DNA from: Candidatus Hydrogenedentota bacterium
GTDB lineage: Bacteria > Hydrogenedentota > Hydrogenedentia > Hydrogenedentales > SLHB01
Reading direction: 5' to 3'
Assembly (NCBI GenBank): GCA_034408725.1
Contig: JAWXCN010000111.1
Coordinates: 1-32,165, forward strand
DNA: 32,165 nt
Both the position numbers and the translations under genes were made by a program. A model generated the notes under the pieces. That model ran no database searches, was not told the origin of the DNA, and worked only from the letters and a program-made list of their open reading frames with translations. Below, piece by piece: positions 4,166 through 26,512 of this stretch (position 1 is the first letter of the stretch; every line of letters begins with the position of its first letter).

Positions 4166-4288
4166 CTGAATACAAGTGCCGTCCTGGATAGAAGTCATAC
4201 CCCACCTAACCAACACTATAAAGGGCGTCACAACCCTCGTCCGGCACGAGGTCAAATTACACCAACCGAGCGGGATACAATCATCCGC

Positions 4289-5137: not shown

Positions 5138-5276
5138 ATATTCTCAATTTTGTCATCCAAATACTTCGTTCCCATCGGCACAAATCTCGGAGCTAACCAT
5201 CCTAGTCATGTGATAAGCTGGAATGAGCATCGCCCCACGGTGCGTTCTCTGTTCATAACCAGTTGGAGGCCAACCT

Positions 5277-6353
5277 ATGAGTAAGCGTTCGGTGTGGATT
5301 GCGTTTTGTGTAGTGGTCATGGGTTCGTTTACCGGCTGCCACCATCTCGGCCCTCAATTTGCCACCGAAACCACCCCAGGCCTGATTGCCCCGGTCACCC
5401 GCGTCACCCCACTCCCCGGTGACGTGCTCAAAGTGGACCAGATCATGATCCTCGCCGATGTGACGAATTCGACGCTCGAACATGACGTATTCGGACTGGA
5501 GAAAAACCTTTTGAATGGTTTCGTCGACGCCATGCCCGACGCGCCCTATCAAATGGGTTTCAGTTCGTTCGCCGGCGTTTCGCAGGACGAGTGGATGTGG
5601 CTCCCGCTTCAATACGGCAACCTCGAATCCCTCAAGGACTATGCAGCAAATCTCCAATTCCTCGGCAGCACCACGCCCCTGCACCAGGGCATCGCCGTCA
5701 CCGGCAAGGAATTTGAAGGCCGCAGCAAAAAATCCGTGTTGGTCGTGTTCTCCGACGGCAGAACCCATCCGCATCAGCGCGTGCTCGATGCTCTCGCGGA
5801 CATCTCCATCGCGCACGACGGCGAGTTGTGCATCTATACCATCAACTGCGGCTACAGCGAACCGGGCCGCGAACTGCTCCAGAAAATGTCGCGCGTCACG
5901 CATTGTGGCGGCGCATGGCAGGCTCACGAAGTCAACTCCCCGTTGCGAATGGAGGCCATGGTCCGCGAAATCTTCTTCGGCCCGGGCGCTGCCCTCATCG
6001 AACAGCGTACGATAGTCCTGCAAAACGACGTCCTGTTCGACTTTGACAAGGCCGTGCTCAAACCCGAAGGAAGGGCCGCGGTCGATACGGTGATCGCTGA
6101 GGCCAGGTCGCGAAGACTGGACCGTCTCGTCATCGAAGGTCATACCTGCGACCTCGGCTCGGACGCGTACAACATGGACCTCAGCCAGCGCCGCGCCAAC
6201 GCCGTGCGGTCGTACATGATCGAGCAAGGCATCGACGGCAGCCGCATCACCACGGAAGCCTACGGCGAAAGCCGGCCCGCGGCAGCGAACATCAACGAAG
6301 CCAATCGCAAACTGAACCGGCGCGCAGAATTCAGATTCAGGTTCCAGAACTAA
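5277..6353 (+). CDS. Lipoprotein with vWA-like and OmpA-like peptidoglycan-binding domains
   Basis: GGAGG RBS; signal ending FTGC; MIDAS-like DVTNS...TPL...VFSDG; C-terminal VLFDFDKA, IEGHTCDLGSDAYNMDLSQRRA, YGESRP, NRRAE. Confidence 0.9.
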   Translation: MSKRSVWIAFCVVVMGSFTGCHHLGPQFATETTPGLIAPVTRVTPLPGDVLKVDQIMILADVTNSTLEHDVFGLEKNLLNGFVDAMPDAPYQMGFSSFAGVSQDEWMWLPLQYGNLESLKDYAANLQFLGSTTPLHQGIAVTGKEFEGRSKKSVLVVFSDGRTHPHQRVLDALADISIAHDGELCIYTINCGYSEPGRELLQKMSRVTHCGGAWQAHEVNSPLRMEAMVREIFFGPGAALIEQRTIVLQNDVLFDFDKAVLKPEGRAAVDTVIAEARSRRLDRLVIEGHTCDLGSDAYNMDLSQRRANAVRSYMIEQGIDGSRITTEAYGESRPAAANINEANRKLNRRAEFRFRFQN

Positions 6354-6374
6354 CCAGATCCATCATCCAACAAT

Positions 6375-6414
6375 TGTCTGCCATCCCGTCGCGCGACGGC
6401 ATGGCAGACATTTT
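6375..6414 (+). terminator. Rho-independent terminator after the OmpA gene
   Basis: TGTCTGCCAT c CCGTC gcgc GACGG c ATGGCAGACA followed by TTTT. Confidence 0.7.
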
Positions 6415-6459
6415 CCGTCTGTATACAACAAACTTGACGTTGCAGCCCATCGCCGACTA

Positions 6460-7305
6460 TACAGTCGCCTCGGCAACAACGCGCAAGGCTATATCGGCGA
6501 CAAACAATCCAGCGGCGAGCGCGTACAGTTCATCGCAGCCGGACCAGTGTTCATGGCATGGACCGGTCAAAACGACGAAGCGCTCGCCGCAAAACGCGCA
6601 ACGTTGCCCACCACGCTCCCCCTGTCCACCACGCTCCCCGTGTCCACAAAGTCCACAAAGTCCACAACCGAGGCCAGCTTCATAATCGACGACATCCCCT
6701 TCAACAACATCTGGCTTGCCCTCGCGTTTCTTGTGATCAACGTGCTCGCAGCCATTGCGTGGTTTTTCAAAGGTTCCGCATGGGCCACAAAAACACCGCC
6801 CAGACCCGGCGCGCAACCCATTCGCGCGAACGAGCTGCGCAACCGCCTGCTCGCGATCAACCAAACCGGCACGCCAGTCGAAGTAACCGACAACGGCGAC
6901 ACCATCGACATCACGTGGCGCTACGCCGACGCCCGCTGGCTCGATCACGCAAAGGCCCACGGCATGCGGCGCATTCACAAACTCTCGCTCGACCTTTCCG
7001 AAGACGATCACACCGTGCGCGTGCGCGAGTACATGTCCGCGGTCGATTGGTCCGCGGGCGTCGATGCTGCATCCATTCAATGGCGCGCCGCGATCGGCAT
7101 CCAGTTTTTCCAATACGAACACTAGCGCGTGTTCGGCCTCCAGATTGCTCCCGACGGTTCGTTGAAGCCGAACCTCTCCTACAGCTATACCTTCAACTTG
7201 CAGGAGTTGAAAGAGCCATTCGTTCAGGCGATAACCCGCGCCAGCTGGACGTGGCGTCCCGTGTTCTTCAATGCGCCAAAATCGCTGCGCTGGTTGACGG
7301 AATAG
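6460..7305 (+). pseudogene. Hypothetical membrane protein, interrupted by an in-frame TAG at 7123-7125 and apparently 5'-truncated
   Basis: Reading continues past TAG: ...FFQYEH*RVFGLQIAPDGSLKPNLSYSYTFNLQELKEPFVQAITRASWTWRPVFFNAPKSLRWLTE* (7303-7305). The frame is also open upstream of GTG 6547 (RLGNNAQGYIGDKQSSGERVQFIAAGP) without an obvious start or RBS. The 5' boundary is approximate. Confidence 0.7.
6606..6668 (+). repeat. In-frame 18-mer x2 plus 9-mer x3 repeat (GTCCACAAA)
   Basis: gcccaccacgctccccct gtccaccacgctccccgt gtccacaaa gtccacaaa gtccacaac; encodes PTTLPLSTTLPVSTKSTKST. Confidence 0.8.
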
Positions 7306-7348
7306 GTTGAGGCGCTGAGACGCACGTTTTATACTCGCTTCAGCAGCC

Positions 7349-7481
7349 GGGTATCGGGTTTCGGGTTCCGCGGAGGGCGATCATTATTTGTCAGTGCCTG
7401 CTCAATACTCTCTATCTCGCTTCCTGGCTTCCTCACTTCCCGTCTACTTCTGCGGTATCCGAGAACCGATAACCGGTAATT
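7349..7481 (+). repeat. Heptamer-flanked dispersed element, copy 2 (more diverged)
   Basis: GGGTATC GGGTTTC GGGTTCC GCGGAGGGCGATCATTATTTGTCAGTGCCTGCT...TACTCTCTATCTCGC...TCTGC GGTATCC GAGAACC GATAACC. Confidence 0.8.
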
Positions 7482-7665: not shown

Positions 7666-7743
7666 GTCCATGTCTATCCATATCCGTCCGCGCCAATCCG
7701 CGTTTTGTCCATGTTCGTCCATCCCGTCCACGTTCGTCCATAC
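7666..7743 (+). repeat. Degenerate 10-mer tandem repeat (GTCCAYGTTC family, about 8 units)
   Basis: gtccatgtct atccatatcc gtccgcgcca atccgcgttt t gtccatgttc gtccatccc gtccacgttc gtccatac. Confidence 0.75.
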
Positions 7744-7787
7744 CCGGCGTCTGTTTTCTGCCTATCGACAACCACAAAATCCTCACG

Positions 7788-7810: not shown

Positions 7811-7925
7811 TGATGTACCTTGCTGTGTCCAAATCCAAATGCCGCCGAGGACGCCCACCCTCCCAAGTCCCCCTTTGAAGGGGATTCAGGGGGATGTAGG
7901 ATTAAGCCATCAAAGAGTTCACGCG

Positions 7926-8150
7926 ATGGAAAGACTTCTAAAAGTCCCGCTAACACTCACCCCGCAGCCCGAAGGCGGATTTACGGTCACCAGTCCCCAA
8001 CTGCCCAAGTTGATCACCGAGGGCGATACCGTCGATGAAGCGCTGGGCAATGTGCACGACGCCATCGCAGCCGCACTGGAAATCTACGGGGACGAAAGAC
8101 GTCCGCTTCCCGGAAAGCTTCTCCAAGATTCGCCACACGATTCGATTTAA
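7926..8150 (+). CDS. hicB: HicB-family antitoxin (short, orphan, possibly decayed)
   Basis: MERLLKVPLTLTPQPEGGFTVTSPQLPKLITEGDTVDEALGNVHDAIAAALEIY...RRPLP matches the HicB-like signature GGFxVxxPxLPxxxTxGDTxxEAxxNxxDA. Start reassigned to ATG 7926. Confidence 0.8.
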   Translation: MERLLKVPLTLTPQPEGGFTVTSPQLPKLITEGDTVDEALGNVHDAIAAALEIYGDERRPLPGKLLQDSPHDSI

Positions 8151-8429
8151 TTTCCCCTCCCCCTCGTTTCCACGCTCGGGGCACAGACTGGCTGTGAAAA
8201 GCAGCCGTCGAAAATGGAGCTGCAGGTGCGCGCGTTCCTACCCCGAGTTAGGAAAGCAGGATGGATGAAAAAACCTAACCCTTGTTAATCCGCGTCACAT
8301 TTTGACAGTCACGGAGGAAAAGAGGCACAGTTCTAAAGACTTTTGGTTGTATTTCATTGACGGGGGATTAATCAATGCGAACATTCGGAACGTCGAAACG
8401 CTGCTTCCAGCTACGGGGAATTTAGCAAG

Positions 8430-11400
8430 GTGAAGTCGAGCGAGATTCGCCAAAACGAGGTGGCCTTTTGCGCGGATGTGAAGTCATGGGCCGATGCGCT
8501 AATTGCCAATCACCCGGAATGGCCATTCAGCCATGTCAAGATCGAGCAATATGGCATAGGTTCCCGCAAACGCTCCGATCTTCGCGTTTATAGAAAAGGC
8601 AGTGGCACGCCAGTCCTTGCGGGAGAGGTAAAACTTCCAGGAACTCCGGAAGGAAGAAGCCCATACGATTCGAATCTAATGCAGGACGCCTTTAACAAGG
8701 CGGACAATATACAATCTCCCTATTTTTTCACCTGGAATATCAACACGTTCGCATTATTTGATCGCAGTAAGTGGAACGTTCCGCTTTTTGAACGCCGGGT
8801 TCGTCAATGGGAACTTGGTACAGTGCTTACCTCGCCACTGGATTGCTCACGACCAGATGTGCAGCAGCGAGTTCGCGATCAATTGTTGCCCGCGATATTC
8901 GCCGAACTGGCGCGAATTGTCGATGGCAAAGTTACAGAATGGGGTATGCGTCCAGATGACTTGTTCATTCGGTCACTAGAAAGCCATCTCGAATGGCCTG
9001 TACTTGGCACGAGAGATTATCTCATTATGAACTCCAGGACTGACGATGTTTTCGCCACACAACTACAGAGTTGGATGGCCGAAGAAATGAACTGGACCTT
9101 CGATCCCAATGACGATGAGAATTGGGCTGAAGCTACAGAGCGCGCGGCGCGAACGCTATGCTACGTTTTCTGCAATCGGGCAATTTTCTATGAGGCAATT
9201 CGCGCGAAGTTCCCGCAGAATCTTACCGCCCTATCCATGCCCAGGAAAGGCAGGGGCACACATCATGGAGTCTACGAGTATTTTCGAAATGGTTTTAAGC
9301 AAGCGGTACTCGCAAGCGGGGACTATGAACCAGTCTTTTATCCACACGTGGATGATTGGGCTGGTTCTTTGGTTTTCGCATCAGACCAAGCATGTGAAGG
9401 GTGGCGCGGACTATTCGTAAGCCTAGCACAATACAATTTTCGACAGATTCCTCACGACATTATCGGGGGCATTTTTCAAAAGCTTATTTCCCCGGAAGAA
9501 CGCCAGAAATTCGGTCAATTTTTCACTGGCGAAGATATTGTTGATATCGTTAATGCGTTTTGCATACGTCGGGCGGGAGATCGAGTCATTGACCCCGCTT
9601 GTGGCTCCGGTAGCTTCCTTGTTCGCGCGTATCATCGCAAGGCGTGGTTGTCGGAACATAAAAGTGGTGGTCGCCGCAATCACGACAACAGAAAACGACA
9701 TTTTGAACTTCTTCAGGAGACATGTGGGTGCGACATAGCACTGTTCGCGGCTCATTTAGCAACCCTGAATCTTGCCGCTCGCCGTATTGAAGAGGAAGAA
9801 AATTACCCCCTTATCAGCCGGGGTAATTTTTTTGAGACTATTGAAGATCGACGTCACTTTTTCAAGATTCCGGGAAATCCAAAACCGTCCGGCGGCCGAG
9901 AGCTCGTGAGCGTTCCGCTAGCATCCATGGATGCAGTGATAGGAAATCCGCCTTATGTTAGACAGGAACAAATTCCACGAAAACTCGATTTGAAACGACA
10001 GCGCGGCGAGACAAAACATTCTCACGAGAGTCGTTTAAAAACAACGAAGGAACACTTGACGTCCCTCTGTAGCCAACTCTGGCCAGGCTTGAAGATGAGT
10101 GGCCGTAGCGACCTCCACTGCTATTTTTGGCCGGTTGCTGCAAGTTTACTGGACGAAGGCGGTTATTTTGGCTTTCTTACCTCATCAAGCTGGCTAGATG
10201 TTGAGTATGGGTTCCCGCTACAGCGCTGGATTCTAAAGAATTTCAAGCTAGTCGCTGTACTCGAAAGCTTGGACGAACCATGGTTTCAAGATGCCCGCGT
10301 AAAAACGTCCATTACAATTCTACAGCGATGCACTGACGAACGCGATCGCATGGACAATACTGTGCGTTTTGCCCGTTTCTTTAAGCCGGTAAAAGAAATT
10401 CTCGGCCTTCGACCTCATGGCGATGAATCTGCGCGACAAAACGCTGCTGAAGCTTTGCGCAAACTCATAGTTGGCACACGATCTCCATTCAGCGATGATC
10501 GCATGCGCATCATTCCTATCCGGCAGTCCGAACTTTGGACGGAGGGACTGAGGGCAGCAAATCTGTTGCGCGGGCACGATAAGTTTCCGAGTCAAGTGGA
10601 CGTAGATGGGCCGGAAGAGTCGACCTCCAATTCCACCGAAGCAGACGCGATGGAGCACATTGCGTCAGATTACGCTGCAGGGAAATGGGGCCGTTTTTTA
10701 CGAGCGCCAGACTTATATTTCCGCCTAATGCGGGTATACGGAAATCGGTTCGTGCGATTGGGAGAAGTCGCGGAAATCCGGTTCGGTATCAAGAGCGGCT
10801 GTGACGCTTTTTTTATGCCACGCGATGTTACAAATGCAATTTTGACCGAAATGCGGAAGGGTCTGCCATGGCACGATGTGCCATTGATGCGGACATGCAA
10901 ACGCAGCGAGATTGAAGACGGCAAGGTACGCGTGGTGCGCGCTGGAGACAATACGCTACATCCGGTTGAGACTAAGTTCCTTCGTCCTGAAGTACATAGT
11001 CTAATGGAAGTGCATCGTCCCGTTATCCGCGTTGCTGATCTCGACCGTGTGGTTTTGTGGGTAAATCAGCCTTTATCTGAACTAATCGGTACCTATGCAG
11101 AAAAGTACATCCGTTGGGGTGCGAAACAAACCTTCGCATCCAAGAAATCGAAAGCAGTACCAGTTCCGTTGCGAAGTTCGTGTGCTGGCAGGCCGTTGTG
11201 GTACGACCTCACCGGAATTGGCGTTGGAAAAATATTTTGGCCAATGGCTCAAAAATACAGACACATCGCGCCGCTAAATCCTGATGGCCTAGTATGTAAT
11301 CATAATCTCTTTTACCTCGACGCATCCACACTCGATACTCACCAAACTATCAGTCTGTGCGGCGTTTTAAACTCCACGATAGTAGCACTGTTCAAACACT

Positions 11401-12161
11401 TTTACGGTCGTTACGCAGGTTCCGAAGGAACACTTAAAACCGAGGTCGTCGACACCGTGCTATTGGAAATCCCTGATCCGCGTGCAGTACAACCGGAATT
11501 GGCCGAACGCATGAAACATGCACTCGATAGAATGAGTCAGCGTAAAGTAACTCATATGGTTGATGAGGCATTGCTGCGATGTCATTCTCAAGAGGCTATG
11601 CGAGACATACTGAATGGCGAAGCGGCTTTGCCGCTAGAACTGCGCCAAGAAGATAGACGGGACTTGGACGGGTGCGTCTTTGAATTACTCGGTGTAACTG
11701 ATCAAAGGCAGCGAGAGACGCTTATTGACGAACTTTATACGGTAGTTACAGCCTATTATGGCTATCAGCGAACACAAGATATACAGTCCACCGAAAATAG
11801 GTCTGGCAAGAAAAGTGGTCGAATTAGTCCTCAAGACCTCGCAGAAAGTATTTGGCGTACGCTTGATGACAAAGCGAAGCGTTTGCCTGTTACGGAGTGG
11901 ATTGCGAGTGAATTTGGTGCGGTGGAAACGGTCCACATTCCCGATGGAAAACCTGATGCCCTCGGCTCGCAAGATATGTTTAATCCATCCACTGTAAAAG
12001 CGTGCGAGAAAGCCCTTTCTCTGCTTGGCAAGAACTTGCTCATGTCGGGAGAACGGTATGAGGAAGCGGCGCGTTCTCGCACCGGAACTCTTGCGCTCCA
12101 GGAGAAAGTCAAAGATTTGCTTATGCAGTGGCGAATCCATGGCAGGGGCAATGCGAATTGA
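8430..12161 (+). CDS. Fused restriction endonuclease / N6-adenine DNA methyltransferase (type IIG/IIL-like R-M enzyme)
   Basis: 1243 aa; N-terminal PD-(D/E)xK-like RSDLRVY...AGEVKLP; ERQKFGQFFT; SAM motif I VIDPACGSGSFL; motif IV IGNPPYVRQE; C-terminal putative TRD. Visibly AT-richer than the flanks. Confidence 0.9.
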   Translation: MKSSEIRQNEVAFCADVKSWADALIANHPEWPFSHVKIEQYGIGSRKRSDLRVYRKGSGTPVLAGEVKLPGTPEGRSPYDSNLMQDAFNKADNIQSPYFFTWNINTFALFDRSKWNVPLFERRVRQWELGTVLTSPLDCSRPDVQQRVRDQLLPAIFAELARIVDGKVTEWGMRPDDLFIRSLESHLEWPVLGTRDYLIMNSRTDDVFATQLQSWMAEEMNWTFDPNDDENWAEATERAARTLCYVFCNRAIFYEAIRAKFPQNLTALSMPRKGRGTHHGVYEYFRNGFKQAVLASGDYEPVFYPHVDDWAGSLVFASDQACEGWRGLFVSLAQYNFRQIPHDIIGGIFQKLISPEERQKFGQFFTGEDIVDIVNAFCIRRAGDRVIDPACGSGSFLVRAYHRKAWLSEHKSGGRRNHDNRKRHFELLQETCGCDIALFAAHLATLNLAARRIEEEENYPLISRGNFFETIEDRRHFFKIPGNPKPSGGRELVSVPLASMDAVIGNPPYVRQEQIPRKLDLKRQRGETKHSHESRLKTTKEHLTSLCSQLWPGLKMSGRSDLHCYFWPVAASLLDEGGYFGFLTSSSWLDVEYGFPLQRWILKNFKLVAVLESLDEPWFQDARVKTSITILQRCTDERDRMDNTVRFARFFKPVKEILGLRPHGDESARQNAAEALRKLIVGTRSPFSDDRMRIIPIRQSELWTEGLRAANLLRGHDKFPSQVDVDGPEESTSNSTEADAMEHIASDYAAGKWGRFLRAPDLYFRLMRVYGNRFVRLGEVAEIRFGIKSGCDAFFMPRDVTNAILTEMRKGLPWHDVPLMRTCKRSEIEDGKVRVVRAGDNTLHPVETKFLRPEVHSLMEVHRPVIRVADLDRVVLWVNQPLSELIGTYAEKYIRWGAKQTFASKKSKAVPVPLRSSCAGRPLWYDLTGIGVGKIFWPMAQKYRHIAPLNPDGLVCNHNLFYLDASTLDTHQTISLCGVLNSTIVALFKHFYGRYAGSEGTLKTEVVDTVLLEIPDPRAVQPELAERMKHALDRMSQRKVTHMVDEALLRCHSQEAMRDILNGEAALPLELRQEDRRDLDGCVFELLGVTDQRQRETLIDELYTVVTAYYGYQRTQDIQSTENRSGKKSGRISPQDLAESIWRTLDDKAKRLPVTEWIASEFGAVETVHIPDGKPDALGSQDMFNPSTVKACEKALSLLGKNLLMSGERYEEAARSRTGTLALQEKVKDLLMQWRIHGRGNAN

Positions 12162-12340
12162 CCATTTCTTAAAGCGTGACTTGATATGCGAGGTGGTCGT
12201 GGAAACTTTCTTCGTACTATTGAGACTACCGGCATATGCTGACGTCTGACAGAATTGAACGGCTGGTTGCACGACGGGCCTAAATAGCACAAGAAATAAT
12301 AAAAAACACTAGCTTTGAATCACTGTGGAAGGTTACGTCT

Positions 12341-12988
12341 ATGGCGTTGATGGCGCAGGATATTGTCATTACTGACGTTGCTACGTCGGGGGTTTGTTTA
12401 GCTAACTTAGCGGGCATTTCTTCCGCACCTTCCGCGCAATACATAGGAAAATGCTTTGCATTCGATGAGGGTCGCGTTTCTATTGAAGCTGACCAAGTGG
12501 GGCAATGTGTGCATGCGCACCTGCTTTGCCAAACAATTATCGGCCTCTGGAAAGAACAGTGCACGGAAAAAGTATTCGTTTGCTATTTGTTGCATCCGGG
12601 AATGGTGCGATTATTCTTCTGTTCACAGCGAAAAAAGTATCCCGCGAAATTTCATACCGTCCTGACTCAATGCGCCGGCTATCTAGAATGTGGTCAGGAT
12701 GCTTTCGCTCTCGAGAGCATTCGACCACTGGCTTTCTGGGAGCCGCCTTGCACCTCGGTGGCGCTTTGGCCAACTGGATATTACGGAGAGACGGATGGGC
12801 AAAGAATTGTGGATACAGGAAATTTGTTGGCATATTTCAGCTTCGAAGAGGAATCAGGTTGCGAGGAAATGGAGCCCGAGTATATTCGGATTCCCACATC
12901 AGAGCACTCGGAGTTTTTATTGGGTAAAGAAACGTATCGTTATCTTAATCGCTGGATCCGGATAGCCGATGGCCAAGTAGCAATGTAG
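12341..12988 (+). CDS. Hypothetical Cys-rich protein
   Basis: 215-aa ORF in the AT-richer block, GGAAGG upstream of ATG, same strand as the R-M gene; no recognised motif. Confidence 0.55.
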   Translation: MALMAQDIVITDVATSGVCLANLAGISSAPSAQYIGKCFAFDEGRVSIEADQVGQCVHAHLLCQTIIGLWKEQCTEKVFVCYLLHPGMVRLFFCSQRKKYPAKFHTVLTQCAGYLECGQDAFALESIRPLAFWEPPCTSVALWPTGYYGETDGQRIVDTGNLLAYFSFEEESGCEEMEPEYIRIPTSEHSEFLLGKETYRYLNRWIRIADGQVAM

Positions 12989-13276
12989 GGAATAACGCAG
13001 TTCCCATACAACCGACAGGGACGCCACGCGAACATGAAGGTTGTATGGAACGCGAGTGTGGACCGGGACAATTCCAAGGCAGTTCCCGATCTCCCCTTCC
13101 GAACGATCCGTGGCCCTCGGGAGAAGGTACGTCTCGGTAAAAGGTACTGCAGGAATGGACTGGACGAAGTAGACGCGCCGCCCCGGCGCGTGTCGGCATC
13201 TATAGACCCTAAAAAGCAATTTTTTTCTGTAGTGTTGCAGTCGGCGACCATTCATCCGGAGAATGGTTTTTCAGTT

Positions 13277-13301
13277 GTGGCCGGTCTCCAGACCGCGCCA
13301 C
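13277..13301. repeat. Imperfect palindrome at the right edge of the AT-richer block
   Basis: GTGGC-CGGTC-tcca-GACCG-c-GCCAC. Confidence 0.55.
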
Positions 13302-13360
13302 CCACGCGACCCGCAAGTCTCCCCTCCTACCCAACCAGTTAACCCATCATTTCTCCGTAT

Positions 13361-13405
13361 CCGTCCACACCGTCCACACCGTCCATATCGTCCACATCGT
13401 CCACA
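13361..13405 (+). repeat. 9-mer tandem repeat YCGTCCACA x5
   Basis: ccgtccaca ccgtccaca ccgtccata tcgtccaca tcgtccaca. Confidence 0.88.
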
Positions 13406-13427
13406 GCGACGACGTTTCCCCCCCAAC

Positions 13428-13499
13428 GGAGCGCGGTTTTTCCAACCCGCGATTGAATTACCCCCCCCCGACAAACGCGGGTCAGAAACCCGGCCCTCC
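13428..13499. repeat. Inverted pair of GGAG-type REP-like units (REP doublet)
   Basis: GGAGCGCGGTTTTTCCAACCCGCG (13428-13451) and CGCGGGTCAGAAACCCGGCCCTCC (13476-13499), approximately reverse complementary. Confidence 0.65.
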
Positions 13500-13614
13500 G
13501 CAATTGCACAGTATTAGCGTCTTGGACAATTAACTACCTTTCGTTTCGCGCGACGACTATCCGTAGTCACTCCCGCACTGCAACATGCCGCCCATACTTA
13601 TGGGAGGTAACATC

Positions 13615-14499
13615 ATGGCAGCCAGTCTCACCACGCTCGGCACCCCGCGCGCTCCAGGCTGGTCCCGCGAATGGTTTGCCCGCGTCGAAGCCGAGGAACA
13701 GCAGTTAAACCGCCGAATCTGCGGCGGTGTTACCCCTGCCATGACCCCCTGCACCCTGTCCTCCGATCACTCCTCAGGTCGTTGTCGGTTCCACGGCGGC
13801 ACCCCCAACATCGGCCCGCCTGCGGACAATCTTAACGCGCGCGTGCACGGTCTGTACTCGCGGCGGTTGCAGCGGTGCGGGGTGCAGTGTCCGTTGTGGG
13901 AGTCGTGCGGGTTTGCGTCGGACGACATCCTGGCATTGCCGGTGAAGCAGAGGCCGTATTGCGCGTATGAGCGGGAGGAGTACGCGGCGCTTGTGGCGTT
14001 TTATTTCAAGGACGAGCTGGAACCGGAGATCGCGTGGGAAGACGACGGCGACGCGGAGAATGACCATGACGATTGGGGTTCGTCGTTGTCGCGGTCGGAG
14101 TGTCCGGAGCCGTTTCTGATGCATCAACTGGTGTTGTTGACGGTGATGTGCACGCGGGCGGCGGCGGTTCTGGGTAACGCGACGTTGACGGACGCTGTCG
14201 AGGTGGAGTCGGAGCGTTACCGGATGAAGACGGTGAAGCCGGGCGCGGCGTTGGAGGCGTTTTTGCGCATTGCGCGGGAGTTCCGCGGGTTGCGCGCGGT
14301 GATCAGTACGAAGAAGTTAATCCCGGAGCCGCGGAAGATGGGGCTGGCGTCGCGGTATCGGGATTTGATGATAAAGACGCGGGGAGTTGAGGAAGAGGCG
14401 ATTGCGGAGACGGAGCGACGGCGAAAGGAGGAAGCGGGTATCGGGTTCCGGGTTTCGGGTGTCGCAGATGAGAATGGAGCGACGCGAGATAGTGAGTAG
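13615..14499 (+). CDS. HGGxSTG-like Cys/His-rich protein with NARxHGLYS motif (phage small-terminase-like N-terminus), function unknown
   Basis: GGAGG RBS before ATG 13615; ICGG...PC...GRCRFHGGTPNIGPP...NLNARVHGLYS, then CGVQCPLWESC...YC; acidic linker; helical C-terminus. Confidence 0.8.
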   Translation: MAASLTTLGTPRAPGWSREWFARVEAEEQQLNRRICGGVTPAMTPCTLSSDHSSGRCRFHGGTPNIGPPADNLNARVHGLYSRRLQRCGVQCPLWESCGFASDDILALPVKQRPYCAYEREEYAALVAFYFKDELEPEIAWEDDGDAENDHDDWGSSLSRSECPEPFLMHQLVLLTVMCTRAAAVLGNATLTDAVEVESERYRMKTVKPGAALEAFLRIAREFRGLRAVISTKKLIPEPRKMGLASRYRDLMIKTRGVEEEAIAETERRRKEEAGIGFRVSGVADENGATRDSE

Positions 14500-14585
14500 C
14501 GAGTAGCGAGTAATGAACAGCAGGCTTTGGCGGATAATGTATCGCCGCCCGCGAGACCCGGGACCCGATATTCGCCCGGAACCCG
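14436..14585 (-). repeat. Heptamer-flanked dispersed element, copy 3 (inverted)
   Basis: Reverse complement aligns with copy 1: GCGATACATTATCCGCCAAAGCCTGCT...TACTCGC TACTCGC TACTCACTATCTCGCGTCGCTCCATTCTCATCTGC GACACCC GAAACCC GGAACCC GATACCC. Confidence 0.9.
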
Positions 14586-15521
14586 CTATTTCCCCAACGC
14601 GTCCGACAGCGTCTTCGCGGCGGCGATTGCCGGTTCGCGGCCGCGCACGCCGGTCACGCCGGCGACATACGCATCGGTGTGAAATACGGCGTCAAAGAAA
14701 CCACCGCCGGCGTCCGCGGAGGTGATCGGCGCGGATGCTTCGACGTTGTCCGCATATTTTGTCAGGTAGTCGACATACTTTTCGTGCGTCACCTTTGCGG
14801 TGGCCGCATCGGTTTGACGAGAGACGAATACTTTGTATTTCTCATCACCATCGGCATAGACGGCCGTAAACGTATCGCGCAGGAAATCGAGGCTGAGCGC
14901 GTCAACGAGAAAATATTGGATCGACGTTTCTACCCGGTTTTTCGCGGGCAATACGCCGGGGCCCCAAAGTTTCTCCGGCGAATCTTCGAGCCGCGCTGCC
15001 AGCGCGTTGCCCACCGACAGCAGCAGCGCGTCGGTGTTTTCCGCGTCGCGCGGGCCGAGCATGGTCGCGTAATAGCGGCCTTTCCAGAAGATGAGGTCGG
15101 CGCCGGTGCGGTAGGCGGCGCGGCCAAGCTCCACCGGTTTCTCATCTCCGCCGCGCTCGACGGAGAACACGCCAAAGGCGTTGTGCGCGGTGCCCATGTC
15201 GTAGAGATAGATGTCGATAAGGTCCGACTCCTTCGTGTCGTTCGCGAACGATACGAAGGTCAATCCAATGACGTCGTAGGCCATGTACAACTCGGAGCGG
15301 CCATTGATCTTGTCGTACATGTTTTCCGGCACGTACCGTTCCACGGCGCCGGCGCGCTTCCATCCCTTCGGCGGATCCAGCTCCAACGCCGTGGCAATGG
15401 TATCCGTAACCTTCAACATCGCAGGGGTCGGCGCGCTCGTAGCGGCCAGCGCCCCTTCGTCATCGGCGCGCGCGCTCACCGCGCCAATCGCCAACCCCAG
15501 GGCCAGGAGGTATCGCGTCAT
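14586..15521 (-). CDS. Secreted DUF6599-like protein
   Basis: Signal peptide (..AVSARA|DD); motifs ENMYDKINGRSELY, DIYLYDMGTAHNAFGVFS, FWKGRYY. Confidence 0.82.
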   Translation of the reverse strand: MTRYLLALGLAIGAVSARADDEGALAATSAPTPAMLKVTDTIATALELDPPKGWKRAGAVERYVPENMYDKINGRSELYMAYDVIGLTFVSFANDTKESDLIDIYLYDMGTAHNAFGVFSVERGGDEKPVELGRAAYRTGADLIFWKGRYYATMLGPRDAENTDALLLSVGNALAARLEDSPEKLWGPGVLPAKNRVETSIQYFLVDALSLDFLRDTFTAVYADGDEKYKVFVSRQTDAATAKVTHEKYVDYLTKYADNVEASAPITSADAGGGFFDAVFHTDAYVAGVTGVRGREPAIAAAKTLSDALGK

Positions 15522-15569: not shown

Positions 15570-16532
15570 TTACGTAGCGACGGCCGATTCCAGGTACGCT
15601 TCCAGCTTGTCGAACGAACCGGACCAACCAAGCGTCATGCCGCCCCGCTCGTTGACAAAGGCGTCGATTTCTTCCGGCGTGACCGCGCCATACGGCTGCC
15701 AGGTAACGGTGACGCGCGTGGCGTCCGGGACTTCTGCCGCAAGCGCGACGGTCGTGAGCATGGTTTCCGGCCACACCGGCGCCATCGGATGCCGGGAGAT
15801 GTTCTCGTTCTCGTCGACAAACTGCTGGGTGTATACAATGCGATCGGGCCGCTTCATTTCAAGATACTGTGTTCGCCCGCGCAGTTGCATCCCGGCATCG
15901 TTGGACATAACGAACACCGAACTTCCGCCTTCGCGCATGTCGCATTTCAGAAACTTCATCGTGAAACCCGTCGGCGGCAACCATTGCACGAAATGCTCCG
16001 GCGATGTCCACATGTCGTACAGCGTCTCGATCGGTACGTCGAACGTGCGGTTTATAACAAAGTGTTCTTTCCCGGTGGCGTTCTTCTCCAGGTATTCCGC
16101 CAAGCGGTCCCAGGTGGCATTTCCACCTGCCAGTTTAATGAATGCGCGGGTTTCCGCGGCCGCTTCCGGCGTGGGCAGCGTCATCCGCATGTCAATCCGC
16201 GTCTTGCCATCGACCTCCGCAAATTCGGCGGTCACACGGAACAGTGAAGGCCGATCGTCGTAGCCGCCGTGATCATAGACCAGTCGCTTTTCCTTTTCGA
16301 CTTCATGGTACAGCGTCTTGTTGGGATAGTCCGTGCCGTCCGGTCCGTACATCGTATAGTGCCAGATGCCGCCGGGCCGCAGATCTTTGCTGTGCGTCGT
16401 CAACGTGAACCCGCGGGGACCCCACCATTGCGCCACCTGCTTCGGATTGGTCCACGCCTCCCACACCAGTTTGACGGGTGCGTCGTATACGCGCGTGATT
16501 ACGATCTCGTTCGACTTATTTTTTGCGCCCAT
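15570..16532 (-). CDS. Tandem SRPBCC/AHSA1-domain protein
   Basis: Two repeats of the ITRVYDAPVKLVWEAWTNP..QWWGP / INRTFDVPIETLYDMWTSPEHFVQWLPP pattern; DLRPGG / DMREGG; overlaps the ArsR stop. Confidence 0.92.
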   Translation of the reverse strand: MGAKNKSNEIVITRVYDAPVKLVWEAWTNPKQVAQWWGPRGFTLTTHSKDLRPGGIWHYTMYGPDGTDYPNKTLYHEVEKEKRLVYDHGGYDDRPSLFRVTAEFAEVDGKTRIDMRMTLPTPEAAAETRAFIKLAGGNATWDRLAEYLEKNATGKEHFVINRTFDVPIETLYDMWTSPEHFVQWLPPTGFTMKFLKCDMREGGSSVFVMSNDAGMQLRGRTQYLEMKRPDRIVYTQQFVDENENISRHPMAPVWPETMLTTVALAAEVPDATRVTVTWQPYGAVTPEEIDAFVNERGGMTLGWSGSFDKLEAYLESAVAT

Positions 16533-17063: not shown

Positions 17064-18122
17064 ATGAAATCCCCCGTGCCGAGCGAAAATCTTAACCGAC
17101 GCAACTTTATGCAGGTTTCAGCCGCTGGAGTCGCCGGGCTTGCGGCAATGCCCGCGCGCGCGGAATCGCCCATCGTGAAAAAGACTCCGGGTGACGATGG
17201 GCTCATCCACCGTAACGAACGGCCCGGCATGCAATACCGGAAATTGGGCCGCACGAATTTCGTGGCGAGCCGGCTGGTATTCGGGTGTGGCGCGGCGTTG
17301 TCTGGCGGCAAGGCGGTGCGTCTGCTGGACCAGGCGTTTGAAGCGGGCGTCAACTTTTACGACATCGGCTCGAATGCGTATTACCGCGGCAGCGAGAAGG
17401 CCCTTGCGCCGTTCCTGAAAGCCAACCGCGATCAGGTTTGGGTTTCGTCGAAGGCGCCGTTGCAAGTTCCCGCCGATCACGTTTTAGGAAAACCGCTTTC
17501 CGCCGCGCAGGGCAAGGTTATGGCGGACAAATGGACCACGCTGATGGAAGAGAGCCTGCGCGATCTCGATACGGACTACGTCGACGCTTATTACCTGATG
17601 GCCGTGGGCGATCCCGTGATCGTAAAAAACGAAGAAATTCACGGCGCGTTCGTTAAAGCGCGCGACGCCGGCAAGATCGGGCACTTCGGCGTGAGCACGC
17701 ATAAGCGCGCGCAGCAGGTGCTCGAGGCGGCGGTCGAGACCGGCTGGTACGATCTCGCGATGATCGCGGTGACCCCTGCGGGCTGGTATGAATGGGAAAC
17801 GCGCGCGATTGCCGAGGGTACACCCAACCTGAAAGAGTTGCGCCCGCAATTGGACAAAGCGCGCGAGGCGGGCATCGGGCTCGTCGGCATGAAGGCTTCG
17901 CGCTTCCTGTCTGGAATGACGTCGGGCGGCAAAGGAAACGAAACAGCGTTCGATTCGCATTACGACGAAAAATACCGCGCGAACAGTCTCACCGCGTTCC
18001 AACGGTCCTACGCGTATGTGCTGGAGAATGGCCTTGATGTGGTCAACGCCGACATGCAGAACTTCAAACACTTCGAGGAAAACGTCGTCGCCGCGCGCGA
18101 GTCGCACACGTACTTCGCGTAG
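17064..18122 (+). CDS. Aldo/keto reductase family protein with twin-arginine signal
   Basis: NRRNFMQVSAAGVAGLAAMPARA; MQYRKLGRT; GVNFYDIG; WVSSK; ESLRDLDTDYVD; GKIGHFGVSTH; GIGLVGMK. Confidence 0.88.
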   Translation: MKSPVPSENLNRRNFMQVSAAGVAGLAAMPARAESPIVKKTPGDDGLIHRNERPGMQYRKLGRTNFVASRLVFGCGAALSGGKAVRLLDQAFEAGVNFYDIGSNAYYRGSEKALAPFLKANRDQVWVSSKAPLQVPADHVLGKPLSAAQGKVMADKWTTLMEESLRDLDTDYVDAYYLMAVGDPVIVKNEEIHGAFVKARDAGKIGHFGVSTHKRAQQVLEAAVETGWYDLAMIAVTPAGWYEWETRAIAEGTPNLKELRPQLDKAREAGIGLVGMKASRFLSGMTSGGKGNETAFDSHYDEKYRANSLTAFQRSYAYVLENGLDVVNADMQNFKHFEENVVAARESHTYFA

Positions 18123-19794: not shown

Positions 19795-21438
19795 TTAGGC
19801 TACTTCTCCACGCGATTTGAGCAACAACTTACGTTCATCGGATCGGCTTTCGCCGACCGCGGTCACATAGACGGCGCGCTGGTCTTTTACCGGACATTCA
19901 TTCTCGCATATTCCACAGCCGATGCAAAGGTCCGGCACCATGAACGGCTTGTTCAGAACGACGATATTGCCATAAACGTCTTTTGCTTCTTCGTCTTTGG
20001 TTTGAATTGCCTTGGGCGACGTCGGGCACACTTCCTCGCACACGACACAGGGTATTTCCATCGCATGCGGCAGGCAGCGGCCCACGTCGAAGAAAGCCGT
20101 ACCCAGACGGATGGGGCCTTCTTCCGTGTACGTTCCCTTGCCCAGTTTTTCTTCGACGGTGATTTTCCGGATAGCGCCCGTCGGGCAGACTTCCGAGCAC
20201 AGCGTGCATTTCAACTGGCAATGGCCAATCTTGAAATTCATCACCGGTGTCCAAAGGCCTTCCAGGCCGGCTTCCTGGTAGGTCGCCGGTTGAAGCACAT
20301 TGGTGGGGCACGCATTGATGCACTGGTCGCACTTGATGCATTTGGAAAGAAAGGCGTTTTCTTCGACAGAACCGGGCGGACGCATCAGTTTGGGTGAAAA
20401 GTTTTCGTTGGTGTTCACGCCGTGATTCTTGATAAATGGGTAGGCCAACAACCCAAGAATTCCGGCGAAAACCAAGCGCCGACGCGACATGTCCGGTCCG
20501 GGGACTACCTGCTTGGTGTCGAGTTTCACCATCGAGAACGAGAGCGCGTCCTCGGGGCAATCGTCGATACAGTTCATGCACGAGAAGCACTCACTCAAGC
20601 GGAGTTTGCCTTGCGGGTCCGCGGCGCCTTCGCAGCGGGAGAGGCACAGGTTGCAGTCGGTACACTTATGCACGTCGCGGTTGATGCGGAATAGTGAGAA
20701 CCGCGAAAAAACACCGAGCAGCGCGCCGAGGGGACAGAGCACGCGGCAGAAAAACCGTGGAATGATGATGTTCATGCCGACGAGGCCGACGATGACAAGT
20801 CCGATCCAGAAAGACCCGACAAACACGCGGCTGTTCACGCCCGGTTTGAACTTCATGTTGTCGAGCCAAACGGTGTCAAGCGCCATTCCGTTTGCAGTGA
20901 GCGAGGCCTGATCGATGACCATGTCGGTGGCGGGTGTAACGACGGTTGCGAAGGTGCGGTACATTAAACAAATGGGATCGAGCAGGCCAATCTGCAATGC
21001 GCCCATCGACGCCATCAGCAGAAAAACCGTGAGGATTCCGTATTTCAGAAAATAGATGCCGCGGTAGCGATTTTCGTCGATGCGGGATTTGGCGTTCCCG
21101 ATATTGAACAGCCAGCCGACGAATTGGTGCAGCGTTCCATAGGGGCAAATCCAGTTGCAGAACACCCGTCCGAACAGCAATGTGACGCCAATGATGAGAA
21201 TACCCCAGCCGAGATACCGGTAGACGTATCCGGTCGAGAGCATGGTGGCGATCATCACGAGCGGGTCCATCTCGAGGATGCGCGAAACGGGATAGCCGCC
21301 GAGGCGGGAAGTCCAAGTCGCCCAAATCGAAAAGATAAACACTGCGAAGAAGAATATCTGCGAGAGGATGCGCGCGTTGGTGAGCCGCAATGCCTTGCGG
21401 GTGTTGAAGCCTTTTAGATACGCGGTGAGTCGTTGCAT
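19795..21438 (-). CDS. Membrane 4Fe-4S polyferredoxin (NapH/MauN-like fused to NapG/MauM-like domain)
   Basis: [23 protein letters not shown], CxxCxxCxxxC(P) clusters, RPPGS..E..F...[24 protein letters not shown]. Start reassigned to ATG 21438 (MQRL), just downstream of the DUF362 stop. Confidence 0.92.
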
Positions 21439-21457
21439 AACAATGTTGCCGTGTGCA

Positions 21458-22549
21458 TCACACGATGCGGATTCTGCCGTCCCAATTGATGCTTCCGCTG
21501 CCCTTCTCTTCCGCCTTGAACAGATACTGCGGATAATCTCGCCCACGCTCGAGCAAATGTTCGAATGCCCAGGCATCCGAGGCCACCGGGTCAACCGAAG
21601 CGATGACTGTATGGCCCGGCTTTACGTTTGACGGATCACCGCCGGTCGGTCCGTTTTGCATGAGGATGTGCGTGCCGTCCAGAATTGTCATGGTTGGCCG
21701 AATCATGATGGATAAATCGGAGACAATTCCGTGGATATCCTGATGGAACTGGTTGCGCGTGCCGCCAAGCAGCCCGTACCAGTTCTTGATACCCATCGAC
21801 GCATGACAGAGGTTGTGATCCTTGACCGGCGCCAACCCTATTACCTTGTCGACGTTCGTGAACGGCCGTTGAAAGAACCACCAATGCTCGATCAATTCCG
21901 CACCGGGCGTGTTCAACATCTTGAACGCGTTGGAGTCCGGAAGGTAGACGCGGCCCCCACCCTTTTCCGTCGCGAAGCTGACCTTGCTTTTTTCAAAGCA
22001 GTCCGCGGGCGACTCGATAGGATTATCCGCGACGCGGACTTCCTGCGCGCGGCAATCAACGAGCAGCATTTTGATAATCAGTTCGACCAACTCCGGATTC
22101 GAAGTTGCGCCCAAATTGGGTGCGCGATCAAAAGCAACATTCGGTTTAAGCAAAACGATATCGCCGGGCTGGACGTAATGTTTAATTCCGCCGATGGCAT
22201 CCAGCGCGGCCATCAGTTTTTCCTGCGGTGTGCCTTGGCGTCCAATACCGACATCCGGCTTTCCGAACGGCTTCTCGACGCGGTAGTCGCGCAGGCTGAA
22301 AGGTGTGTGCTGGGGCACGCTCCGCAGGCCGCTTTTGTCACGCAACGAAAGCGGCCAATTCTCCGGGGCCGCGGCGAGGTAGGTTGCCGCCCCGGCGATT
22401 CCCCCAACGGTACTGATGCGCCGGAAAAACGTGCGACGGTTCATTTCCGACTTGACGTAGTCAGGATGCTGAATAGGCTTCGTCTTCGGGGGCTTCTGCT
22501 TGGGGGGATTGTTCCGGCTTTCCGGGTCCTCGGGTCTGCTGGTATCCAT
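21458..22549 (-). CDS. DUF362 family protein with twin-arginine-like leader
   Basis: MNRRTFF..; [59 protein letters not shown]. The start could instead be the MNRR Met near 22444. Confidence 0.9.
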
Positions 22550-23672
22550 CGCCTAGATCGTCCAATGCCGATCTCAACAGGGTTGACGCCTGTTCGAGCA
22601 CAGCGGTTTCCGGCGCGCCGTCCACGCCGTACACGAAGTTGTTCTGTTTACCGAGCGACAGGTAGGCGTCGAGCACCTTGTGCTTCAACACCACTTCGCT
22701 CTCAGTCCGGCTGACTTCATCGTAATCGAAGAGCTGGTTTTCCAGCAACTTATCAAATAACGCCGTTGCCTCGTCCGGTGACGCGGCCTCGTGCATGTAA
22801 TACCTAAACACGGAATCTGATCCGGACGTTCCAAACCAGAAATCCTTGGCAAAATCGTACTGAAATACGTCCGATTTTTCAAACTGAATTCCGTCAAAAG
22901 GCACCTTAAGTCCGTTGGCCAAGACGGTATACGGGGCAGGCAGGGCGCCTTCTCCAGCCATGTCGGCAAAGGTCCCAGCGAGTTGCTTGGCCTTTTCCTG
23001 GATTTCGGGTGCGTCCGAGTTGCCGGAAACCTTGAAGTAGTATGGTCCGGCTATGCCAATTGCTCCCGCGGACGTTGGATAGTAGTTCGCAGCGCCGGTA
23101 GACACAATTTTTGCTGTTTCATCCCGTTGGGCCGCGAATATGCCGAGTGCGTTGGGCAACGCGCCCATGTCGTAAAGTTCTATTGAAAGGTCATGTCCGG
23201 CTTCCTCTTTGGCCAGTGAAATGTAGTCCATTTGGACGAATCCGAATTGAAAAAACTGGTCCGCCGCACCGTTGATTTTCTCGTACAGATTCTCTGCCGT
23301 GAAGTGTTGCAGGCGCGATGATGGTGTCCACCCTGCGTCAAGGATGGTATTGGGAAATGGGGCCATCTCAACCGCGGGTGCATTCGCGGCGCCGCCACTT
23401 CCAAGGGTTGCGGGGTCCACCCAGCGCAATAGCGGGGTGCGGTATAGGGTGTCGTGCACCGTGCCCTCTTCGAGCAGCGCCATCGAAATGTCCCGTTCGC
23501 CGGGGTCAAAATCCTCTTTCTTGGACAAAAACCATACGCCCATGACCACTACTGCAACGCCGAAGATCGCGCTTGCAACTATTTCGACCGTCGAAATACG
23601 TTTTCGGAGCACTTTGCGTTTGCGGTCGGTGAAAACCTTATGGTCACGCGAACTGATAAACCAACGCGGCAC
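22461..23672 (-). CDS. Membrane-anchored DUF6599-like protein
   Basis: One N-terminal TM helix; ENLYEKINGAADQFFQFGF, IELYDMGALPNALGIF, GPYYFKV; paralogous to 14586-15521. Confidence 0.82.
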   Translation of the reverse strand: MPRWFISSRDHKVFTDRKRKVLRKRISTVEIVASAIFGVAVVVMGVWFLSKKEDFDPGERDISMALLEEGTVHDTLYRTPLLRWVDPATLGSGGAANAPAVEMAPFPNTILDAGWTPSSRLQHFTAENLYEKINGAADQFFQFGFVQMDYISLAKEEAGHDLSIELYDMGALPNALGIFAAQRDETAKIVSTGAANYYPTSAGAIGIAGPYYFKVSGNSDAPEIQEKAKQLAGTFADMAGEGALPAPYTVLANGLKVPFDGIQFEKSDVFQYDFAKDFWFGTSGSDSVFRYYMHEAASPDEATALFDKLLENQLFDYDEVSRTESEVVLKHKVLDAYLSLGKQNNFVYGVDGAPETAVLEQASTLLRSALDDLGDGYQQTRGPGKPEQSPQAEAPEDEAYSAS

Positions 23673-26213: not shown

Positions 26214-26512
26214 TGCGAGTCCTCCTCCTAATGCAAAACGAGCGCATGGCTTACATGGCCGCGCGCGGTACGGTTTGTTCGTCAGAGAAAAAAACACCCG
26301 CGTCACCGCCGCTATGCCGCGTCGAATCACTTACGGGATTTGTCCTACGGTCAGCGAGGAAAAGCCCCCACATTGCCGTTGACGCCACTGGGGTTGTGTT
26401 TTGTTCAGAATTTGGCGGATTCATCAATATTCTCTGATTGGTTCATTCGCCGTGCGTGAACGTGAGTTCTGCCTGTCCAAACACGTATGCTCCTGGCAAT
26501 GTTTAAGGATCG

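Follow-up and report, generated by a model that had tools for sequence, protein, structure and literature searches.

How can one strand of a single reading frame turn from C-rich to G-rich within about 50 nt? The question is raised by a gene on contig C111 of a Candidatus Hydrogenedentota bacterium, whose genome comprises 5.17 Mb in 280 contigs; the entire contig, 32,165 bases long, is the stretch analysed here and is called the window throughout. The gene encodes a protein related to phage small terminases (TerS). Our reading, a tentative one that falls somewhat short of being probable, is that the flip marks a recombination or gene-conversion junction between two oppositely biased segments of the same subfamily, placed at its most conserved motif. 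The flip as such is real and statistically exceptional, and the gene that carries it, of terminase descent, belongs to a defence-island module.

A sharp composition flip within one gene

The uninterrupted open reading frame (ORF) runs from 13585 to 14499 on the + strand (304 aa), and the database gene call begins at its second Met, at 13615 (294 aa), which we take as the likely start. A preliminary description of this DNA had given its observation the span 13300 to 14585; a single + strand frame does contain the flip, but not over that extent. Two parts of this small-terminase-like gene can be told apart:

13615 to 13857, + strand: 5′ part, coding for the Cys-rich domain (HGG / NxNAxxHGLY), with C/A-type ("amino") codon bias
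13858 to 14499, + strand: 3′ part, in which the Cys-rich domain ends and the acidic linker, helix-hairpin-helix domain and tail follow, with G/T-type ("keto") codon bias

The preliminary description had counted bases in four 60-nt segments, and our recount gave identical values: 26 C and 17 G in 13621 to 13680, 25 C and 14 G in 13741 to 13800, 12 C and 30 G in 13861 to 13920, and 8 C and 28 G in 14341 to 14400. Third codon positions show 43 C and 16 G of 84 in codons 1 to 84 (GC skew at third positions, GC3 skew, −0.46), and 140 G and 34 C of 221 in codons 85 to 304 (GC3 skew +0.61); four-fold sites of the 3′ part comprise 85 G, 8 C, 7 A and 11 T. The 3′ part is truly coding in this frame, as its GC content of 62/46/79% over the three codon positions and the excess of G at position 1 show.

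The best change point falls at codon 91 (around nt 13858), between NARVHGLY and SRRLQ, in keeping with the earlier placement at about 13820 to 13860. Its likelihood-ratio test (LRT) statistic of 56 was reached in 0 of 2,000 permutations and is the highest among the 2,595 genome ORFs of at least 250 aa, the runner-up having 34.9. The 500-nt window from 14001 to 14500, with a skew of +0.37, is one of the 11 most extreme among 20,259 genome windows, and none of the 3,165 genome ORFs of at least 200 aa has a GC3 skew above +0.49. In the family alignment, the flip site lies directly 3′ of an invariant block, H78-G79-Y81-R83-R84.

Might such a step be an artefact, that is, a chimera joined at a conserved motif, or else an ordinary landmark such as the chromosome origin or terminus? 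A mis-join is conceivable in a multi-copy family, the cumulative skew of the contig reaches its lowest point not far away, around 8 kb, and sequencing depth differs between island-side and right-side contigs in four runs. Contigs of three public runs, all of them independent assemblies, nevertheless bridge the flip without differences (X1, 13438 to 15500; X2, 13752 to 13928; X3, 13781 to 14235). Run X1 may be the source sample. In run X4 contigs meet at 13811 and do not bridge the flip. Together with the two flanks of the window, which adjoin in a same-genus genome (G003, contig C570), these contigs rule out an assembly chimera at the flip. As to the origin, the best dnaA match is on contig C270, with weaker same-domain matches on C191 and C22 and none on C111, so that the window is not the dnaA region; moreover, paralogs and relatives carry the same kind of bias. 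We therefore regard an artefact or ordinary landmark as extremely unlikely.

The gene is derived from a small terminase

In a Pfam search the window protein matched no family. NCBIfam NF041373 (HGG_STG, or HGGxSTG) scored 19.3 bits (E 6.6e-4), under its cut-off of 29, and PHROGs returned a weak match to the small-terminase family phrog_9231 (E 1.5e-3) covering aa 60 to 94 only. The gene had been labelled HGGxSTG-like. This holds for the HGG core, for the window protein shares with NF041373 a C...C...GRCRxHGG core at aa 46 to 72, and one partial homolog (P0062) is so named by its source; it does not hold for the family cut-off or for STG, which is absent, the protein reading RCRFHGGTPNIG (HGGTPNIG), with the motif single instead of repeated. 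Our literature search found the name HGGxSTG in no paper.

At E 1e-3 or better, 63 database proteins match the window protein. In the family alignment, the N-terminal domain carries seven conserved Cys together with HGG and NxNAxxHGLYxRR; then comes an acidic linker, which varies, and after it a conserved helix-hairpin-helix domain whose tails vary. An AF2 model of the window protein (pLDDT 76) was compared with known folds. In BFVD, the top matches are unnamed (E 4.7e-5), and many small-terminase entries, including P27-family and COG3747 ones, appear at E 0.02 to 0.4. Foldseek against the PDB gave nothing at E 0.001 or better and the VIA wide structure comparison no more than generic helical ones (Z at most 8.6), two results that leave room for a small-terminase fold.

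Genomic context provides stronger evidence of terminase ancestry than these family and fold searches. On contig C153 of the same genome, a 169-aa ORF just upstream of a TerL gene (phrog_2, 1.8e-20) shares 27 of 37 residues with aa 247 to 280 of the window protein. In genome G001 (contig C5; L112, 329 to 3130, minus strand), a single 967-aa frame joins the Cys-rich N-terminal domain of the family to TerL, and its strand bias goes from C-type to G-type near the junction of the two parts. Two further contigs (G020:C23 and G002:C65) carry a family gene and a TerL gene on either side of cargo, in divergent orientation. Finally, the distant motif-region relatives on IMG/VR contigs are phrog_1889 TerS proteins (1e-18 to 4e-8) encoded upstream of TerL and portal. 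Because of this context, we consider the window gene to be small-terminase-derived, as the preliminary description had supposed of its product; it stands alone on C111, where no TerL was found.

In pac-type phages such as P22 and SPP1, the pac site lies inside the TerS gene. The window gene resembles such TerS genes in its weak phrog_9231 match, the small-terminase entries among its BFVD matches, the shared tail, the fusion of its N-terminal domain with TerL in a relative, and its phrog_1889 relatives. It differs from them in standing alone, with no TerL on its contig and no other phage genes. The family proteins are also longer (294 to 430 aa), with a seven-Cys domain, and the family occurs in several copies per genome beside defence cargo. 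The true phage relatives, furthermore, have ordinary skew.

Opposite strand biases run through the family

In the species genomes, an alignment query found 51 loci, of which 45 represent full or partial members, from metagenome-assembled genomes (MAGs) mostly labelled Hydrogenedentota, and 6 match the short motif alone; a scan with the single protein had returned no relative. Of the 41 relative genomes searched, 13 have the family, with up to 8 matches per genome. Among the relatives, GC3 skew ranges from −0.83 to +0.74, and some members are mosaics. An absolute GC3 skew of at least 0.4 was seen in 20 of 39 family ORFs versus 11 of 107 neighbour ORFs, and one of at least 0.6 in 11 of 39 versus 0 of 107, which amounts to a strong excess of skew anomalies in the homologous genes.

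The bias separates keto from amino bases. G-type members favour G both at four-fold sites and in codons ending in R, and T in codons ending in Y, and C-type members favour C- and A-ending codons; extreme cases are L059 (G-type; G138/C7 and G66/A7) and L039 (C-type; C201/G10 and A38/G5). GC skew at codon positions 1 and 2 tracks that at position 3 (rho 0.85 and 0.72, n = 39), and the 400 nt upstream track the skew of the gene (rho 0.58), the 400 nt downstream barely (rho 0.34, p 0.058). Linked TerL genes share the bias, with GC3 skews of +0.73 and +0.59, and +0.67 in a fragment. In the divergent modules, family gene and TerL are G-rich on the same DNA strand, but the cargo between them is not.

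One way to obtain such dialects would be selection on the message, with disjoint codon sets (NNC/NNA versus NNG/NNU) serving translation rate, tRNA dependence or escape, or an unstructured RNA. The synonymous codons of the two dialects hardly overlap, and a strand made of A+C or G+T alone should have little self-complementarity. The bias, however, extends to codon positions 1 and 2 and to upstream noncoding DNA, it follows the DNA strand in divergent modules, and highly expressed marker genes use neither dialect: RpoB, RpoC, EF-G and DnaK have GC3 skews of −0.15 to +0.05, on which ground a translational optimum was rejected as the cause. Selection on the message thus appears very unlikely to us. 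As the first two codon positions and the 400 nt upstream go along with position 3, and as the markers use neither dialect, we favour a strand-asymmetric pressure acting on the DNA.

Transcription could in principle exert such a pressure, if sense transcription dominated over the 5′ part of the window gene and antisense transcription over its 3′ part (for example from the gene at 14586 to 15521 or from an internal promoter), each stretch acquiring the bias of its dominant direction. The convergent neighbour is only 87 nt away, the skewed domain as judged by the upstream and downstream correlations approximates one transcription unit, coding strands are C-rich on average (c = −0.086), and switch points differ among relatives. 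Yet two members (L024 and L084) are C-type throughout despite convergent neighbours, and the two genes of the divergent modules have their G-richness on one and the same DNA strand instead of each on its own coding strand. The bias known to accompany transcription, moreover, favours G+T on the coding strand and falls far short of the one seen here. A scan of the site for promoter-like sites, terminators and Rfam families gave nothing above chance, and none of the RNA runs contains the stretch, which we also count against this explanation. Overall, we consider it quite unlikely.

The family-wide strand bias has apparently not been described before: judged on what our literature search returned, there is no account of it in work on GC skew, on phage replication or packaging, or on Hydrogenedentes prophages. 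Replication-associated GC/TA skew and the strand asymmetry of vertebrate mitochondria likewise separate G+T-rich from A+C-rich strands. The likeness extends to G being nearly absent from third positions on the A+C-rich strand and to an affected amino-acid composition. What sets the family apart from both is that its bias is limited to a module backbone of about 1 to 7 kb, occurs in either polarity and switches within genes. Even on a plainer reading, a family that occupies opposite bias extremes and includes mosaics is an unusual natural case of mutation pressure versus selection at synonymous sites, and a caution to those who predict origins from skew or detect foreign DNA by its codons.

A proposed junction between two dialects

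If the flip is a recombination junction, its history might run as follows. The dialects would be a property of the Hydrogenedentota terminase module, that is, the TerS-like gene and linked TerL, and would stem from long-lasting strand-asymmetric mutation pressure of the deamination type on the module backbone, not from codon selection. Recombination or gene conversion among family copies, with its end point in the HGLY/SRRL motif, would then have left one strand of the window gene C+A-rich over the first 81 to 91 codons or so and the same strand G+T-rich over the remaining 210 or so. We infer both the recombination origin of the junction and the mutation-pressure origin of the dialects.

Three observations argue for recombination. 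First, the flip is sharp and directly follows the most conserved block. Second, relatives show gene conversion or recent spread. In genome G018, three copies (L042, L045 and L054) are 88 to 96% identical in nucleotide sequence over a coding core of about 700 to 870 nt, with unrelated flanks; these homogenised cores indicate concerted evolution or a recent spread of the core alone. Two copies in another MAG (L037 and L038) are 89% identical over 811 nt. Third, both dialects exist within the window subfamily, in which a G001 member is C-type up to codon ~190 and a G002 member is mostly G-type. Three members of this subfamily switch at different points, namely before codon 30, at codon 91 and at codon ~190.

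Switch points elsewhere in the family vary too. Four members (L034, L040, L047 and L062, of which L040 and L062 are 93% identical) have their change point within the second conserved block, RR(I/V)CGA...TPC, or immediately ahead of it, which likewise speaks for recombination; L031 changes upstream of both conserved blocks. The idea that the switch is bound to the codons of the NLNARVHGLYS motif, which the preliminary description had put forward, therefore fails, since other mosaics change at codons 38 to 65, ~190 and ~228 and many members have no switch at all.

Several points weigh against a recombination junction. Our comparison turned up no donor copy; the closest relative at the DNA level shares 67% identity over 757 nt, and the recombination event itself is to that extent hypothetical. 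At the protein level, comparison with P0002 to P0012 gives 64 to 75% for the N-terminal part and 67 to 77% for the C-terminal domain; both halves are closest to the same subfamily, and there is thus no phylogenetic discordance that would prove a mosaic. Switches within genes or fused frames, read in the coding direction, moreover go mostly from C to G (the window gene, L031, L040/L062, L047, the C83 copy, the G001 copy and the G001 fusion, versus L034), and random recombination should yield both hybrids equally. Nor does pure recombination predict the regional switches described below, and the model leaves the source and extremeness of the dialects unexplained.

Skew around family loci has an origin-like polarity

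The preliminary description had seen in the flip a symmetry centre of the origin type, located within the gene. In general form, synthesis or single-strand exposure would start at or beside the terminase-like gene and run outward both ways, enriching G+T on the outward-reading strand; the position of the start point relative to the gene would then decide whether a copy is G-type, C-type or mosaic. We scored each locus, irrespective of orientation, by the skew of its right flank minus that of its left flank, leaving unscored those with less than 1.5 kb on either side. The 36 scored rows, less 8 duplicates of the same place, represent 28 loci.

C-left/G-right polarity was found at 24 of these 28 loci (sign test by hand ~2e-4, two-sided, with copies taken as separate places in genomes that are kin). 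Where 8-kb flanks were available, 8 of 15 loci exceeded the 95th percentile of 5,000 random places. The effect persists once gene orientation is taken into account: a regression over 252 flank genes gave a coding-strand term of −0.086 and a side term of +0.110 (locus bootstrap confidence interval, CI, 0.063 to 0.166). In 1-kb bins reaching as far as 9 kb to either side, mean outward skew was +0.03 to +0.09 in every bin, versus a null of −0.002.

These data fit an outward-running process, as do the mostly C-to-G direction of within-gene switches and the differing switch points in the window subfamily. In a 400-kb stretch of G018 with skew domains of about 100 kb, the sharpest switch (−0.16 to +0.18) coincides exactly with one of the two family copies, but the other copy is on none. 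Deamination of an exposed strand gives rise to keto/amino asymmetry, and the pattern of the family agrees with that. A possible precedent is Bartonella where, according to the passages on run-off replication (ROR) in PMC3610622, run-off replication of the chromosome is driven from a phage-derived origin that lies within a lambda-O-like gene. The likeness to ori-lambda and the Bartonella ROR, as those passages and the ones in PMC2697382 present them, is that a phage-derived gene holds or adjoins a bidirectional start, and the skew polarity fits. The difference is that the window has no helicase or initiator module and no iterons, and that its protein is terminase-like and not O-like. The Bartonella passages in both sources, PMC3610622 and PMC2697382, make no mention of skew.

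Other observations tell against a local start. Of the symmetry centre originally proposed, the polarity stands, in the gene as well as at the 24 loci, although polarity alone does not define an origin; what is missing are clustered initiator boxes or iterons in the gene, promoter-like sites, dnaA on C111 and replication genes in the island. The flank effect is due in part to convergent orientation and to the general C-richness of coding strands, and insertion between convergent genes accounts for part of the regional effect. The left flank in G003 is equally C-rich without the gene, which argues against a causal role of the gene in flank skew. In addition, the noncoding half of the left arm consists of dispersed repeats, and the cargo between skewed backbone genes is unskewed. 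We therefore hold an origin-like process to be rather unlikely, if still worth serious consideration.

Taken further, solo terminase-like genes, with or without TerL, might be mobile phage-derived sites, several per chromosome, of bidirectional synthesis or strand opening, for example an in-situ replication that feeds a packaging or transfer system. This is doubtful. If it were true, an origin-type bias would mark the module and, more weakly, tens of kilobases of chromosome, and the start point in the window would lie inside the coding sequence. Should the bias record a real strand-asymmetric process at these modules, they would be places in the chromosome where phage-derived replication, packaging or transfer occurs, in a phylum without a cultured model, and composition alone would be enough to find them in metagenome genomes.

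Neighbouring genes in the window genome share strand-based skew (r +0.51 for same-strand and −0.49 for opposite-strand pairs). As a general rule, however, the family bias is not an amplified local replication skew, since L024 and L085 are opposite in sign to their neighbours. Inversions between inverted copies were likewise rejected; they would yield both polarities equally, versus the 24:4 observed. A Campbell-type insertion of a 159-kb replicon between two G018 copies was unsupported, with no ParB found there. The sole origin-type switch in the window genome with a flank difference of at least 0.2 lies between two convergent genes on C153 (around 16400 to 16480; L108, around 2400 to 2480), 5 kb from a lone TerS (169 aa)-TerL pair at 21416 to 23395 with no other phage genes nearby.

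The gene borders a variable defence island

In the window, the terminase-like gene follows a low-GC segment (GC about 0.48 to 0.53 over 8251 to 13000) and faces a convergent neighbour:

7839 to 8150, + strand: HicB-like antitoxin gene (PF15919, E 8.3e-5, 23.2 bits, under the cut-off of 27)
8430 to 12161, + strand: type IIG restriction-modification enzyme with Eco57I/MmeI-type methylase domains, low-GC cargo (PF07669, 5.4e-14; PF02384, 2.3e-11; PF20473, 3.7e-7)
12341 to 12988, + strand: 215-aa ORF, part of the low-GC island, 0 Pfam families
14586 to 15521, − strand: convergent conserved neighbour DUF6599, right flank of the insertion (PF20244, 1.1e-45), with an orthologue in the syntenic G003 contig

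In that contig (C570), the left flank of the window (2896 to 7305) and its right flank (14595 to 15461 and 17139 to 17453) are only 1.4 kb apart; homology stops at about 7305, and the syntenic site (L110, 4260 to 5664) holds another gene, of about 450 aa, without island or terminase-like gene. The window flanks therefore truly belong together, and the segment from 7.3 to 14.6 kb is an insertion or replaceable segment. The different gene in G003 makes the spot between the two conserved convergent genes a variable one. The window gene forms the right border of the ~7-kb low-GC defence island inserted there.

Cargo beside other family copies is variable and often low in GC, including Hachiman, DUF2290 with a UvrD-type helicase, ABC-3C and a dCTP-deaminase-like gene; a terminase-derived gene is thus linked to variable defence islands in Hydrogenedentota. 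Prophages and satellites of the P2/P4 type are known defence hotspots. The modules described here resemble them in that variable defence cargo adjoins conserved phage-derived genes, but differ in that the TerS-like gene, in some cases with TerL, is all that is left; we saw no genes for integrase, capsid or replication. Our Pfam scan of the three island ORFs (7839 to 12988) found the HicB-like gene, the restriction-modification enzyme and one ORF without a family, and no integrase, regulator or primase-replicase, which distinguishes the island from phage-inducible chromosomal islands and satellites that carry such a module with terS. A candidate prophage on C79 came down to a lone TerL at the contig end.

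Family copies on C35, C83 and C235 are broken, suggesting that the family often decays. On C35 of the window genome (53550 to 55660; L026, 8550 to 10660), a G-rich TerL fragment adjoins a frameshifted, C-rich family pseudogene beside a DUF2290/UvrD-helicase island.

Read depth differs along the insertion. The island-side contig, matched to 12500 to 13389 and in X1 represented by a 5,532-nt record reaching back to about 7858, had depths of 13.6, 10.7, 3.6 and 7.3 in four runs, versus 8.2, 5.6, 2.7 and 3.7 for the contigs to the right. This corresponds to 1.3 to 2 times the depth over the terminase-like gene and right flank (7858 to 13389 versus 13438 to 15500). The run contigs break at dispersed repeats between the island side and the terminase-like gene. 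It may be that the island occurs in a larger number of strains or copies than the sequence to its right.

Repeats flank the gene and the island

Five repeat features lie around the insertion and the gene:

7334 to 7381, no strand assigned: heptamer (CGGGTTY) repeat element, left border of the insertion (repeat families D1 and D2)
13274 to 13322, + strand: copy of a ~49-nt genome-dispersed repeat, C-rich in this orientation (dozens of matches at 80 to 96% identity, on both strands of many contigs)
13361 to 13405, + strand: GTCC-type tandem array, CCGTCCACA x5, one of 56 such arrays in the genome
13427 to 13500, no strand assigned: copy of a ~74-nt palindromic dispersed repeat (inverted-repeat pair I1)
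14430 to 14580, no strand assigned: palindromic heptamer element, an inverted copy of 1541 to 1666 that encodes the final ~23 codons of the ORF and takes up the space between it and the convergent gene

The heptamer elements at 7334 to 7381 and 14430 to 14580 border the insertion of island plus gene. The C-rich arm over its noncoding part (13274 to 13500) and the G-rich arm over its final 70 nt consist of copies of genome-dispersed repeats, so that composition there does not reflect local history. Inside the gene, repeat families were absent beyond chance-size pairs, and there were no iterons.

GTCC arrays consist of 9- to 10-nt units built on GTCC(A/G)(C/T) and are intergenic. The window has four, all on the + strand (712 to 750, 6642 to 6667, 7707 to 7746 and 13361 to 13405), the last of them 450 nt upstream of the switch. 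An array lies within 200 nt upstream of two family copies, those on C111 and C83, at 79 nt on C83. GTCC strand weakly tends toward the locally C-rich strand (35 of 56 arrays, Wilcoxon p 0.013). Their genome-wide spread rules the arrays out as DnaA boxes. The preliminary description had also seen repeats mirrored about the flip. This is true of the inverted copy at 14430 to 14580, but not of the GTCC arrays, none of which lies right of the flip, and the argument from mirror symmetry is weak for that reason.

Palindromic elements with CGGGTTY runs in both arms are dispersed over many contigs and occur in the window at 1438 to 1669, 7334 to 7381 and 14430 to 14580. A homolog from another assembly (P0003) ends in a similar GLGFAVSG tail. 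Farther along the window, AT skew falls to −0.63 between 23750 and 25250 (T far exceeding A on the + strand, GC about 0.63), inside a 799-aa minus-strand ORF (23934 to 26330) that contains short tandem repeats at 24050 to 24190 and 24511 to 24549.

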